Origin: Acidobacteriota bacterium | GTDB lineage: Bacteria; Acidobacteriota; Thermoanaerobaculia; Multivoradales; UBA5704 | Assembly (NCBI GenBank): GCA_040005235.1 | Contig: JBDTZG010000108.1 | Location: 1 to 12,038, forward strand | Length of the DNA: 12,038 bases | Direction of reading: 5' to 3' | Shown here: piece by piece, positions 6,459 through 12,038 of the stretch | How the letters are laid out: every line of letters starts with the position of its first letter | How positions within the stretch are numbered: position 1 is the stretch's first letter | Notes under the pieces: model-generated | Databases searched by the model: none | What the model was told of the DNA's origin: nothing | Seen by the model: only the letters and a program-made list of their open reading frames with translations | Program-made: the position numbers and the translations under genes

Positions 6459-6956
6459 TCAGCCCTCTCCAGCAAGCTCTAAGATCTTCCCGATCAGTTC
6501 CGGTGAAAGCCGGTAGCCGACATCGGCAAGTTGAACGAGAACCGGGGCGACTTCTTGGAGAAGACCCTTTTCCTTGGCGGCCAGGAGCACGCCGCCTGTG
6601 CCGACTACGCGGAGTCCTCGGCTTCTCGCGAGCGAGCGACCGCGCTTGTCGTCCATCAGTAGGAAACCGCAACGGAGCTGCTCGAACAAGGCGATTGCCT
6701 CGGCTTCTCCGGGGTCGACCATGAGGCGCAGCTCATTCAGTGCGTTGACCGGCTCCGGATCGGTTCGCACGATCCAGCCTTGGTCCAAAGCCTCACCAAG
6801 CACCTTGGCGCCCGGGCGGTCTGCGTGGATCTCGAGTTCGTCCAGAACCCGTCCTGGAATCAAGACCGTCGAGTAGAGGCTGTGGAGGATCCCAAGGAGA
6901 CGTGTCCTCGCCAACGCGATGAGCGGCCCGGCGTCGGCGACAATGACTTCGGTCAA
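6459..6956 (-). CDS. DUF3368 / PIN-domain putative toxin (VapC-like), 165 aa
   Basis: [40 protein letters not shown] and [15 protein letters not shown]...GYRLS are PIN plus DUF3368 motifs. The TTG start overlaps the upstream stop (TTGA). Confidence 0.9.
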
Positions 6957-7285
6957 CGCGCGTTCTCGAGCTCTTCGACCAGTTCTTCCGCCGGGTAACT
7001 CACCGCGGCAACGCCGGCCTGGCCGAGCAACTCAATGAAAGCCTCAATGGAGAGGTCGGCCAGCTTTGCGGCTTGCGCTAGCGTTGCTTGTCCGGCTTCG
7101 TAGACGTCCAGGGCCATTGCCCGATGGACTCCGTAAGCGAGCAGGCGCTCTCCGAAGGGAATCGCGAGAATGGCAGGCCGACCGTGCTTCGTGATGATGG
7201 AGAGCTTTCCCGCCTCGGCGTCCCGAAGCAGGTCTCCCGTACGAAGACGGAGGTCGCGGACGGTGAAAACGTCAAAGGGTTCCAT
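6953..7285 (-). CDS. Putative antitoxin with N-terminal Phd/YefM-like and C-terminal UPF0175-like domains, 110 aa
   Basis: [34 protein letters not shown] is Phd-like; [35 protein letters not shown] is UPF0175-like. ATG 7285 follows GGGAGGAAGAGG. Confidence 0.85.
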
Positions 7286-7302
7286 GGGCCTCTTCCTCCC
7301 AA

Positions 7303-7326
7303 TTGTGCCGTCAAAGCGTAGCACAA
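7303..7326. promoter_or_regulatory. Candidate autoregulatory operator of the TA operon
   Basis: Perfect inverted repeat TTGTGC-N12-GCACAA overlapping the minus-strand extended -10-like TGcTACGCT (7323-7315). Confidence 0.55.
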
Positions 7327-9253: not shown

Positions 9254-9338
9254 CGGGCTTTCAGTCCTTCTGGTGTTCTCGATCATTCCGGTCCTGGGGC
9301 GGTGCCCCAGGCTTTCATAAGACCGCGCCTTTGGCGCT
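9254..9338. repeat. REP-like composite palindromic element
   Basis: Three hairpins: GGGCTTTCAGTCC (9255-9267), CCTGGGGC-ggt-GCCCCAGG (9293-9311) and GCGCC-ttt-GGCGC (9325-9337). An extra hairpin GGTCGCC-N5-GGCGACC lies at 9217-9235. Only one copy is visible in the window. Confidence 0.55.
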
Positions 9339-9399
9339 GGCCCTTTGGGTTTCGTAAAGGCGGACTCACGATCAACTGGGGCGCGCCTGGCCCGGGCTG

Positions 9400-9954
9400 C
9401 TAGGGGAACACGCGTTTCCAGAGCAGCAACAAGCCTTGGACCAAGATGTACCCGCAGGCGGCAGACAGAACGACGAATTTGATTCCGGCCGCCAGGCTCG
9501 CGCCGAGGACGTCGAGCTTCGTGACGCCCTGGCCGAGCGAGTTGAGCATCCGCAGCATGAAGATGTTTTCGGTTGCATCCAAGGGGAGCGCGGCGAGCAT
9601 CGACCAGGCGATGACGAACCCGATCGGCCCGCCGAGTCCTTTCGGAGAACGAGCCAGCAGAGAACAGGCGAGCGAAAAAGCCAGCGGGTAGAGCATCAAG
9701 AACCCGAAGTCCCAGTGGATCTGCTTCTTGGCGAGATCGAGCTTTGAATCGTCGACCCAGGTCTTGATGATGGCTGCGGCACGATCCTGGGTCCAGGCGA
9801 GCTCAAGCGAGACCACCTTCTGCGTCGCCACACTGTTCTTGAGCTTCTCTCCCTGATTGCCGAGAGCAATGGAGTAGAGCACGGTCGCCACCACGAGAAC
9901 CAAGAAAACCACCCAGCGGGCAGGGCCCTGGAGAAACGCGAAAGGGTCGCTCAT
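9400..9954 (-). CDS. Hypothetical integral membrane protein (about 4 TM), 184 aa
   Basis: GGGAGGT RBS, four hydrophobic segments, and polar motifs SLELAWT, WDFGFLMLY, LDATEN and IKF. Confidence 0.85.
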   Translation of the reverse strand: MSDPFAFLQGPARWVVFLVLVVATVLYSIALGNQGEKLKNSVATQKVVSLELAWTQDRAAAIIKTWVDDSKLDLAKKQIHWDFGFLMLYPLAFSLACSLLARSPKGLGGPIGFVIAWSMLAALPLDATENIFMLRMLNSLGQGVTKLDVLGASLAAGIKFVVLSAACGYILVQGLLLLWKRVFP

Positions 9955-10179
9955 CTCTCTACCTCCCGAGATTTATGACTGACCCTACGCCAGGTTTACC
10001 CCGGCGGGACGAATCACCGCAACTCGAAGGGAAAATGGCGCCGCCGCGAGCCGGGTCCCCGGCGCGCTTCCTCGCGGCACCTCTGTAGAGGGAGAAATCC
10101 GGGGTCTTGCGGGGGCACCGACCGCTGTTTCCGGTGCGGGAAGCGGTACCGGGTCCGGAAAAACCGGTCCGCGGGTCAC

Positions 10180-10557
10180 GCGGAACGCTCCTTTGGGTTA
10201 ACGGAATGCTCCACTGAGCGCGCGGAATACTCCGCTAGATCTCAGGAACATTCCTCTGATGCTCAGGAATACTCCGCTGGAGGCCAGGAACATTCCTCCA
10301 AGTACCAGGAATGCTCCTCTGATCCTCAGGAACATTCCGCGCATGCCCAGGAACATTCCTCTGGATATCAGGAGTACTGCGCTGGATCTCCGGAGTATTC
10401 CGCTTACACTCCGGAGCATTCCGCCAGAGTTCAGGAATTGTCCTGAGGATCTCAGGAGTATTCCGCTGAGACCATGGAGTATTCCGTTGATGCTCAGGAG
10501 TATTCCTGGGGGTACGAGGAACACTCCGCTGGACCTCAGGAGCGTTCCGTGCATCTG
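10180..10557. repeat. Tandem array of 18 x 21-bp units with a 12-bp degenerate palindromic core MGGARYRYTCCK
   Basis: Units start at 10180, 10201, 10222 ... 10537 with no indels. GGA is present in 18/18, TCC in 17/18 and the full core in 14/18 (hand count). The 9-bp linkers vary around CTGRWNCTC. Confidence 0.95.
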
Positions 10558-10694
10558 GAGGAGTGGTGGCCGCGCCCTGCAATGCGGTGAAACGATCCGA
10601 CGCTGTCCACCGCGCAGCCTGCGAACTGGTGGTGCGGGTCAAGATATCGCTTTGCGCGACGGGCGGGGTACCCCGCGGACGGGGCCTTGGCGCG

Positions 10695-10719
10695 AAAAAC
10701 TGCCGAGCTGGTGCTCGGC
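10695..10719 (-). terminator. Possible intrinsic terminator of the catalase-DUF2180 operon
   Basis: Minus strand GCCGAGC-acca-GCTCGGC-ag-TTTTT, about 70 nt downstream of the stop at 10792. Confidence 0.45.
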
Positions 10720-10791
10720 GTTCCCGGGGAAAGGCCCCTTGCCGGTGGGCTTCGCGCGGAGCCGCCCGGGATCACCCCGGCCCGTTCGCTC

Positions 10792-10986
10792 CTACGCCGC
10801 GGCGACGACGGGTTGCTCCTTCCGGCTCGCCGCAGGCAGAGCGTGGCCGCAGCCGAGACCTGAGCCTCCGGGGGAGCCGACGGCTAGGCTCGCACGGTGA
10901 TCGGCGCAGAGGCCGATCGAGCAGTGGGGGCAGAGGGCGACCGCTTCGGTCGAGCGGCCGGCATCGTGGCAGGGATAGCAGCGCAT
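10792..10986 (-). CDS. Small Cys/His-rich putative zinc-binding protein (DUF2180-like), 64 aa
   Basis: MRCYPCH...AVALCPHCSIGLCADH...CGH gives CxxC, CxxC and CxxH. GGAGG RBS lies inside the end of the catalase gene; the ATG is 2 nt after the catalase stop. Confidence 0.75.
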   Translation of the reverse strand: MRCYPCHDAGRSTEAVALCPHCSIGLCADHRASLAVGSPGGSGLGCGHALPAASRKEQPVVAAA

Positions 10987-10988
10987 GA

Positions 10989-12038
10989 TCAACCAACCTC
11001 CACAAGTTCAGGGGTACGGACCGCTCCGAGCGCGGTGGGCATCATCACCGCGAGATCGGCGGTGGACATCCCGAGCTCCGCCGCGACCCGCATTCCGTAT
11101 TCTGGGTCGGCGCGGAAGAAGTGGCAGAGCTGCAGGTTCTGGACTTCCGGCCGGGCCTGGGAGAGCGGTGCCGCGATCGCCTTGGCCAGCCGGTCGCGTT
11201 GGCCTTCGTCGAACAGGCGAAAGAGGTTGCCCGCCTGGGTGTAATCGTCGTTGCCGATGCGGTGGTCGTACCGATCGGCCGCGACTTCGCCAAGCGGCAA
11301 CGCCGGTTCACGAAATTCGGGAGACTCGCGCGGCGTACCCGGCACGGTGTTGGGGAAGTAGTTCGGCGCGGCTTCCCCTTGTCCCACGGACATCATCCCG
11401 TCACGCTGGAAATGCATCACCGGGCAGCGCGGGCGGTTGACAGGGAGCTGCTGGAAGTTCGTGCCGATCCGATAGCGGTGGGCGTCGGCGTAGCTCATCA
11501 ACCGAGCCTGGAGCATCTTGTCCGGGCTCCAGGAGATTCCGGGCACCGTGGCGCTCGGCGAGAACGACGCCTGCTCGACCTCGGCGAAATAGTTCTGCGG
11601 GTTGCGATTCAGCTCCAGAATGCCCACCTCGATCAGCGGGAACCGGCCGTGCGGCCAGACCTTGGTGAGATCGAACGGGTTGTATTCGAATTCCGCCGCC
11701 TGCGCCTCGGTCATCACTTGGATGCAGAAGCGCCAACGCGGGAAATCACCCTGCTCGATCGATTGGAACAGATCGCGCTGGTGCGATTCGCGATCGCTGC
11801 CGATCAGGGCGGTCGACTCTTCGCCGGTCATGTTGTCGATTCCCTGGAGCGTCTTGAAATGGAATTTGCACCAGGTGCGGTTTCCGGCCTCGTCGATTAG
11901 GCTGTACGTGTGGCTGCCGAAGCCATGCATGTGGCGATAGCTCCGGGGCAGGCCGCGATCGGAAAACAGGATCGTCACCTGATGCAGCGACTCCGGCGAC
12001 TGCGACCAGAAATCCCACTGCATGTCCATGTCGCGCAG
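10989..12038 (-). CDS. katA: Monofunctional heme catalase, small-subunit type; 5' part outside the window
   Basis: WDFWSQSPESLHQVTILFSDRG, MHGFGSHTY, NPFDLTKVWPH, FAEVEQASFSP and the proximal heme-ligand motif RLMSYADAHRYR. The frame is open to the window edge. Confidence 0.97.
   Translation of the reverse strand: MRDMDMQWDFWSQSPESLHQVTILFSDRGLPRSYRHMHGFGSHTYSLIDEAGNRTWCKFHFKTLQGIDNMTGEESTALIGSDRESHQRDLFQSIEQGDFPRWRFCIQVMTEAQAAEFEYNPFDLTKVWPHGRFPLIEVGILELNRNPQNYFAEVEQASFSPSATVPGISWSPDKMLQARLMSYADAHRYRIGTNFQQLPVNRPRCPVMHFQRDGMMSVGQGEAAPNYFPNTVPGTPRESPEFREPALPLGEVAADRYDHRIGNDDYTQAGNLFRLFDEGQRDRLAKAIAAPLSQARPEVQNLQLCHFFRADPEYGMRVAAELGMSTADLAVMMPTALGAVRTPELVEVG

Follow-up and report, generated by a model that had tools for sequence, protein, structure and literature searches.

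The DNA analyzed here, a window of 12,038 nucleotides, contains an array of palindromic sites at an exact 21-bp period, and this array is the core of a dispersed, non-coding and non-autonomous repeat element that has been duplicated within one Thermoanaerobaculia genus. The cores of the array and their phase are under selection, the constraint on them is strand-symmetric, and the array does not code for protein. Judging from the sequence, the array may be a helically phased platform of double-stranded DNA for a homodimeric binder encoded elsewhere, an explanation that we adopt tentatively and would place slightly short of probable; the main rival to it is a self-propagating satellite. The interpretation offered in a preliminary description of this DNA is partly supported by the results. 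A literature search covering main texts returned no description of such arrays.

Laid out in rows of 21 bp, the array consists of 18 consecutive units of exactly this length, in one register and with no indel, just as the preliminary description had it (Table 1). Sixteen of the 18 units hold an exact GGARYRYTCC core, and the two imperfect ones have one mismatch in the unit at 10371 (GGAGTACTGC) and two mismatches in the unit at 10434 (GGAATTGTCC). When up to one mismatch is accepted, the core is matched 20 times in the window, 17 of these within 10182-10548; shuffled windows have 7.5 ± 3.0 such matches, and 20 or more were reached in 0 of 200 shuffles. TRF reports a period of 21 and 15.1 copies for the array. 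The half-units said to flank it are present, and both are in the register of the array (AAAACCGGTCC at 10160 and AGGAGTGGTGG at 10559). The linkers had been described as all different, which is correct for their sequences; they nevertheless share the consensus CTGGAYCTC (K-CTGGAYCTC) and, because of it, the units have an orientation.

The array is a real feature of this DNA and not an artefact of assembly, a doubt raised when it was first described. It is intact in a contig of run X1 that spans 9700-11100 and in a contig of run X2 that spans 9700-10718, both with 0 differences to the window, these runs being from the same study and both perhaps the source of this DNA. Furthermore, separately assembled sister genomes hold orthologous arrays. 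A CRISPR array was also considered and rejected: CRISPR repeats have about 23-47 bp and alternate with unique spacers of similar size, whereas here the core has 12 bp and the spacer 9 bp, the linkers have a shared consensus, and no cas family was found among the ORFs of the window, where none had been seen before either.

Table 1. Location of the array, of the other parts of the repeat element (window positions), and of the arrays of the same genome (contigs).
Feature	Location	Strand	Basis or description
Putative left terminal inverted repeat	10003..10021	.	Pairs with about 10580-10605 in folds
Left arm	10003..10180	+	Homology to G006:C1 ends at 10002; homology to the paralogous arms of G000:C66, G003:C45 and G006:C24 from 10005
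Array	10181..10558	+	Unit is M-GGARYRYTCC-K followed by a 9-bp linker; core-to-core distances are all multiples of 21
Right arm	10559..10611	+	Homology to the right flank of G003:C45 until about 10611 (78% over 55 bp)
Putative right terminal inverted repeat	10580..10605	.	Partner of 10003-10021 in folds
Six arrays of the genome (G000)	Contigs C12, C19, C66, C82, C88, C106		Within-cluster distances are all multiples of 21

The genome in which the window is contig C19 has 6.2 Mb in 140 contigs, a G+C content of 66% and a completeness of 100%. A pattern of two cores at 21 bp has 60 matches per strand in the whole genome, and 0 when it is read backwards as a control. The genome contains 215 exact cores, of which 83 fall in six clusters of 11-18 cores each, and the arrays have 15-23 sites each. 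The exact cores outside the arrays, mostly G+C-rich variants, number 132 and match the 133 expected from base composition, so that there is no scatter of single sites and no regulon; the idea that the array is a regulator sink, put forward at first, is not supported, given this lack of enrichment. BLAST with the array found relatives in five of the seven other genomes of the genus and none in the remaining two (G001 and G005), nor in 53 genomes from ten other genera of the family. Of those seven genomes, four contain the exact three-core pattern, which also occurs once in another genus and whose public matches are mostly in records named Thermoanaerobaculia. The scan for further 21-bp arrays proposed along with the first description has located six in the genome itself and relatives across most of the genus. 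Unit number varies from 14 to 27 across the genus arrays. The window copy apart, the arrays of the genome (five of six) are at loci common to sister species.

The window array is the center of an arm-array-arm element of ~600 bp, at about 10003-10611. The sister genome G006 has an empty site on its contig C1, with the same two flanking genes and neither an array nor a core between them; the distance from the 184-aa gene to the catalase gene is 246 bp there and 832 bp in the window. Since homology to this site stops at 10002, and homology to paralogous copies runs from 10005 to about 10611, the unit gained here (or lost in G006) is arm, array and arm together, ~600 bp in all. No target-site duplication could be read at this insertion, its right junction being too diverged. 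The flanks are common to pairs of copies: C19 and C66 have about 170 bp of left flank in common, and C12 and C88 have about 85 bp of left flank and 200 bp of right flank; in the rest of the genome the arms have no occurrence, and they are found only beside arrays.

The boundaries between arms and array are hybrid sites, CACC-RC-TCC on the left and GGA-GY-GGTG on the right. In the window, the last unit of the left arm (10160-10180) has the hybrid half-site AAAACC/GGTCC and the right arm opens with GGAGT/GGTGG (10560-10569). Arms of the C12 type keep the 21-bp register, with GGTGT-type and CTCC-type motifs in 42-bp steps; three copies of the right arm of this type align gap-free over 200 bp, and in the C12/C88 type the right arm terminates in a conserved hairpin with a T run. 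No small ORF is shared by the conserved arms, and the substitutions in the right arm by codon position, 51/28/40 in three non-independent pairs, have no coding pattern. When either strand is folded to minimum energy, the opening ~19 nt of the element are paired with the closing ~25 nt, which suggests that the element has short inverted ends. In a local alignment for long terminal inverted repeats only the C12 arms were symmetric (-81..-4 with +5..+81), and the alignments of other arms, in G+C-rich DNA, were unconvincing.

Paralogous arms, an empty site, termini that pair in folds and a variable unit number are all features of MITE-like or BOX-like modular repeats; among those expected of MITE-like elements, a target-site duplication and recent copies are missing here. 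The BOX element of Streptococcus pneumoniae has the structure boxA-(boxB)n-boxC, and MIRU and the BIME/REP clusters are modular interspersed repeats as well. Like these, the present element is dispersed, non-coding and multi-copy, it has two conserved arms with variable tandem units between them, and it is located in gaps between ordinary genes, itself carrying none. Unlike these, it has a 21-bp unit with a 10-12-bp dyad core under strong selection, drifting linkers and an exact phase, its old copies are mostly fixed at orthologous loci, and it has no hairpin covariation.

Constraint was analyzed on 399 in-register units, taken unfiltered from 21 arrays of the genus. GGA and TCC are conserved in 95-99% of them. 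The four central positions of the core keep their purine or pyrimidine class in 89-92% of units and are split nearly evenly between two bases; these positions vary by transitions only. At the linker positions the top base reaches just 42-73%. The half-sites vary independently, with frequencies mirrored across the dyad: position 5 (A/G 65/27%) mirrors position 8 (T/C 59/30%), and position 6 (C/T 40/49%) mirrors position 7 (G/A 41/49%). The combinations of positions 4 and 7 (AT 154, AC 79, GT 62, GC 19) have the values of independence, and at the core center CA is counted 97 times and TG 96 times. This mirroring confirms the claim that the dyad symmetry extends to the degenerate positions.

The exact two-turn phasing claimed for the window holds for the genus as well. 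Among 360 cores with at most one mismatch in the 21 arrays, only 7 gaps are not multiples of 21, four of them due to stray cores 66-139 bp outside an array, two adding up to 42 and one being a true 20-bp step; the phase is thus broken once in about 339 intervals. Five of the six arrays of the genome have recognizable boundaries, and in each of these the distance between the boundary sites divides exactly by 21. When orthologous arrays with flanks 79-90% identical are compared, as had been recommended, they differ by the gain or loss of whole units, and they share 51-71% of their linker positions and 53-81% of their degenerate core positions. Cores and phase are kept while linkers drift, and no frame is open in all arrays; selection acts on the nucleic acid and not on a protein, in agreement with the original proposal of selection on the DNA or RNA. 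A constraint that is equal on both strands, position by position, is what a homodimer on double-stranded DNA would produce and one-strand RNA would not.

Outside the genus, similar rows of the same core are found. Species-representative genomes contain at least 113 stretches with the three-core pattern at 21 bp; their linkers are unrelated, and by record name they belong to Acidobacteriota, Bacteroidota, Spirochaetota, Planctomycetota, Verrucomicrobiota, Chloroflexota and others. Arrays are rare: a sample of 400 other genomes across the phylum gave a match in one, and the control gave 0. In 119 metagenome loci, where the spacing was left free from 17 to 25 bp, the main spacing among the matches listed was 21 bp in 58 loci, 22 bp in 14, 18 bp in 13 and 24 bp in 5, and 244 of the 425 adjacent spacings among the matches listed were 21 bp. 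Such a bias toward 21-22 bp rather than toward multiples of three suggests helical phasing. Some of the cross-phylum matches are plain coding repeats (L014, for instance). A link to phages was rejected, the sole match in a viral contig being three identical units within a 279-aa ORF, an unrelated coding repeat. The arrays in different phyla may have one binder or paralogous binders, or they may be no more than a random selection from a broader class of palindrome arrays at two-turn spacing.

Some of these arrays have features of their own. Two metagenome contigs (L234 and L238) carry 13-16 units of the same core at a 22-bp period. A Tannerella MAG (L074, 1791-2241) has two sub-arrays in a single 21-bp register, GGGGAYGTCCCC and then GGGAAYGTTCCC, joined by the hybrid core GGGGAC/GTTCCC. 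In a Planctomycetaceae MAG (L013, 1500-1730) a second tandem repeat, with a 24-bp period, comes directly after the 21-bp array.

We prefer the platform reading because no frame is open in all arrays, the units have no pairing covariation, Rfam has no match to them and the genus has no csrA. Under this reading the array would act as double-stranded DNA, in which each unit would be a dyad-symmetric site made of two head-to-head GGARY half-sites around a flexible central pyrimidine-purine step. The 21-bp spacing, equal to two helical turns, would place all sites on one face of the helix, and a homodimeric DNA-binding protein from elsewhere in the genome would most likely fill the row cooperatively, giving a nucleoprotein structure of ~380 bp. 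We infer all three of these properties, the binding of a protein, its homodimeric state and its cooperativity. The complex may be an architectural site, a roadblock to transcription or replication, or a handle for the element's own mobilizing enzyme.

Half-sites do behave as modules, as seen in the hybrid sites at the array ends, in the related motifs at 42-bp steps in the arms and in the hybrid core of the Tannerella MAG. The proposal of an array for a dimeric binder, made in the preliminary description, stands in so far as symmetry and phasing fit a dimeric binder of double-stranded DNA, and is not supported in its centromere/iteron and regulator-sink versions. Several points count against a platform: no binder turned up in the survey of neighbor genes, the sole LacI-family gene of the genus has a palindrome of its own, recombination-driven turnover of units might maintain cores and phase alike with no benefit to the host, single core sites elsewhere in the genome are at chance level, both strands would fold very well as RNA, and the cross-phylum matches may in part be due to chance. 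If a protein fills the rows, each chromosome would have a handful of strongly selected nucleoprotein structures of ~400 bp.

The main rival to the platform is a selfish satellite or MITE-like element with no host function, whose cores would be the sites of a recombinase or transposase (Y1, for example) or of unequal exchange, so that only units with an intact core would be copied and whole units would be gained and lost. We consider it unlikely, although several observations are as a satellite would leave them: the empty site in G006, with its left junction exactly at the start of the paralog homology, the arms that C19 has in common with C66 and C12 with C88, the pairing of the element ends in folds, the whole-unit differences between orthologous arrays and the hybrid cores at the array boundaries. 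Moreover, strong Y1_Tnp matches (at least 80 bits) are present in the six genomes with arrays and absent in G001 and G005, these being eight related genomes and not independent ones, and a family of REP-like hairpins with 77 hits in the genome has a copy within 300 bp of two of the six arrays.

On the other hand, no autonomous copy was found, the arms being only beside arrays, and no array contig of the genome carries a Y1 transposase gene. Movement must be rare, given that the loci of five of the six arrays are common to sister species, yet the cores are 95-99% intact while the linkers decay. No target-site duplication is readable, and known tyrosine and serine recombinase sites are longer than the 12-bp sites of the array. 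The comparison with REP/BIME and RAYT is similarly divided, with 11 Y1_Tnp matches in the genome and a presence that tracks the arrays in the eight related genomes, and with no contig shared by an array and a Y1 gene, no pairing covariation in the units and a REP-like family that is separate from them. If the element is selfish after all, it would be a rare bacterial satellite in which unit length and core are held by its own mechanism of propagation.

Other repeats are present in the window. At 10701-10732, 270 nt past the stop of the catalase gene, there is a terminator-like hairpin of ~30 nt (GCCGAGC-TGGT-GCTCGGC) with a T run on the minus strand. This hairpin belongs to the REP/REPIN-like family, whose 77 BLAST hits in the genome are often close inverted pairs, and the contig depth at this place is 865 vs 19. 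An 88-bp dispersed repeat at 9254-9341 has many copies in sister genomes (10 in G006 and 6 in G003), and a copy of it lies about 30 bp from a Y1-transposase gene both in G000:C59 and in G006:C7.

We regard as distinctly improbable a further rival, in which the array would be a structured non-coding RNA or belong to a UTR and present an RNA-binding protein with repeated short hairpins (stem N-GGA/UCC-N', loop RYRY). Compared with shuffles, the two strands have much more stable folds (z -10.5 and -6.2), as would any row of palindromes. In 17 of 35 distinct arrays of other organisms the pair outside the core is complementary (25% expected), with all four pair types, and base pairing explains this as well as paralogous binders would. 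In addition, the right arm of the C12/C88 type ends in a conserved hairpin and T run, there is a terminator-like site at 10184-10168 on the minus strand, and several arrays lie between co-directional genes. However, the units have no strand asymmetry (CA 97 vs TG 96; AC 79 vs GT 62) and no covariation within the core or across the linker (p = 0.9 and 0.08, the second value leaning away from pairing), and the outer pair M..K is Watson-Crick in just about 45% of the units of the genus, which fits independence. Furthermore, the orientation of the arrays relative to flanking genes varies among loci, and no promoter-like site was found in 9300-11100.

The specific possibility of a CsrA/RsmA sponge, raised at first, is not supported, on three counts. 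CsrA (PF02599) was found in 0 of the 8 genus genomes, with the control positive in 3 of 14 named genomes; Rfam gave no match at gathering score, only a chance miRNA match at E 0.2; and there is no pairing covariation in either register. The arrays resemble the sponge RNAs CsrB and RsmZ in having many GGA motifs within a few hundred bases, and differ from them in the lack of a CsrA gene in eight genomes, in that GGA would be in stems and not in loops, and in the lack of an Rfam match.

It is very improbable that the array encodes a heptad protein repeat, R-(N/S)-(I/V/T/A)-P-L-D-L in the frame from the first base of the unit, with a synonymous M/K degeneracy. The period is a multiple of three, MGG is Arg and CCK is Pro in that frame, which is open in two of the six arrays of the genome, and ORFs of 118-213 aa overlap the array; but across the six arrays 0, 1, 0, 4, 1 and 2 stops interrupt this frame, every frame of the C82 array contains two or more, and none is open in all six, so that the stop counts contradict the protein repeat against which the preliminary description had cautioned. 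The would-be third codon positions 3 and 9 are an invariant G and T (96-98%) despite the 66% G+C of the genome, and the palindrome reads identically on both strands. Pfam has no match to the three overlapping ORFs, an ORF that covers an array in another organism rarely runs past it, and 22-bp arrays with the same core exist.

A plasmid-type centromere (parC/sopC) or a set of replication iterons is just as improbable. Rows of tandem sites at a two-turn spacing are known from R6K, pPS10, pSK41 parC and F sopC, and the arrays resemble them in this spacing; but six copies lie in ordinary chromosomal gaps among housekeeping genes (catalase, xerC-like/hslVU, hydrolases), most of them at orthologous loci, no Rep, ParA/ParB or ParR/ParM-type gene and no recurrent neighbor was found among 332 flanking ORFs (96 loci) or in the window, and the sites are palindromes and not direct repeats. 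F sopC with SopB, the parC of pSK41 and R1 with ParR, and the ARG boxes (21 bp from center to center) are all rows bound by dimers, and the sopC unit carries a palindrome. The arrays are like these in being a row of sites at whole helical turns, fit for cooperative filling by dimers, and unlike them in that neither a binder gene nor a partition gene is linked to them, in their six chromosomal copies with 15-23 sites each, and in the lack of single promoter sites.

The platform reading can be extended beyond the genus, in a form that we consider unlikely. GGARYRYTCC rows at 21-22 bp could be the landing sites of an undescribed and widely scattered DNA-binding system, in which a homodimer, or paralogues differing in the base preferred outside the core, would polymerize along one face of the helix; a few nucleoprotein bodies of ~400 bp per chromosome might then act, for example, as domain boundaries or roadblocks, from Acidobacteriota to Bacteroidota and Spirochaetota, and the arm-array-arm element would be the vehicle by which the sites spread. 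Should a protein indeed fill the rows, they would offer a way to approach chromosome organization or the insulation of transcription in uncultured Acidobacteriota of soil and perhaps in many further phyla. The rules of the sequence (two independent GGARY half-sites, transitions only in the center, exact two-turn spacing and hybrid ends) are concrete enough for the design of a pull-down or DAP-seq bait.

A survey of neighbor genes, as suggested in the preliminary description, identified no recurrent neighbor and no binder among the ORFs of 86 loci and 332 flanking ORFs. In an all-against-all blastp of 2331 ORFs from the 86 loci, the large cluster consists of array-overlapping ORFs only, and the rest are small clusters of orthologues. 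Pfam assigned the 150 + 127 + 55 flanking ORFs to unrelated housekeeping genes and scattered mobile or defense genes, and none of the small ORFs beside arrays in 12 low-G+C loci was recurrent. The neighbors of the arrays in the genome are catalase, an xerC-like gene with hslVU, hydrolases and toxin-antitoxin pairs.

Proteins can read this core, since it is contained in the CelR/CebR boxes of the LacI family in Actinobacteria (TGGGAGCGCTCCCA, with the variant TGGGAACGTTCCGC), as two papers describe them (PMC4358012, PMC3377646). In these accounts, the box TGGGAGCGCTCCCA is like the array in its 10-bp core GGAGCGCTCC, with a described variant that has GGAACGTTCC, in its central CG step, and in being read by an HTH homodimer; the boxes are unlike the arrays in that they are single or double operators in the promoters of cellulose-use genes (PMC4358012, PMC3377646). 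A LacI-family binder was nevertheless rejected for the arrays. The sole LacI-family gene of the genus has a different palindrome upstream, TGTAACCGGTTACA (4/4 loci), and G001 and G005, which lack arrays, have this gene as well.

This LacI-family regulator occurs once per genus genome (L159, at G000:C111:89144-89278, with the orthologues L160, L162 and L164), and the perfectly conserved TGTAACCGGTTACA, about 90 bp upstream, is presumably its operator. Among the other genes of the window there is a toxin-antitoxin pair of UPF0175 and DUF3368 (PIN-like) at 6459-7324, and two of the six arrays (C82 and C88) have DUF433 genes no more than about 0.7 kb away.
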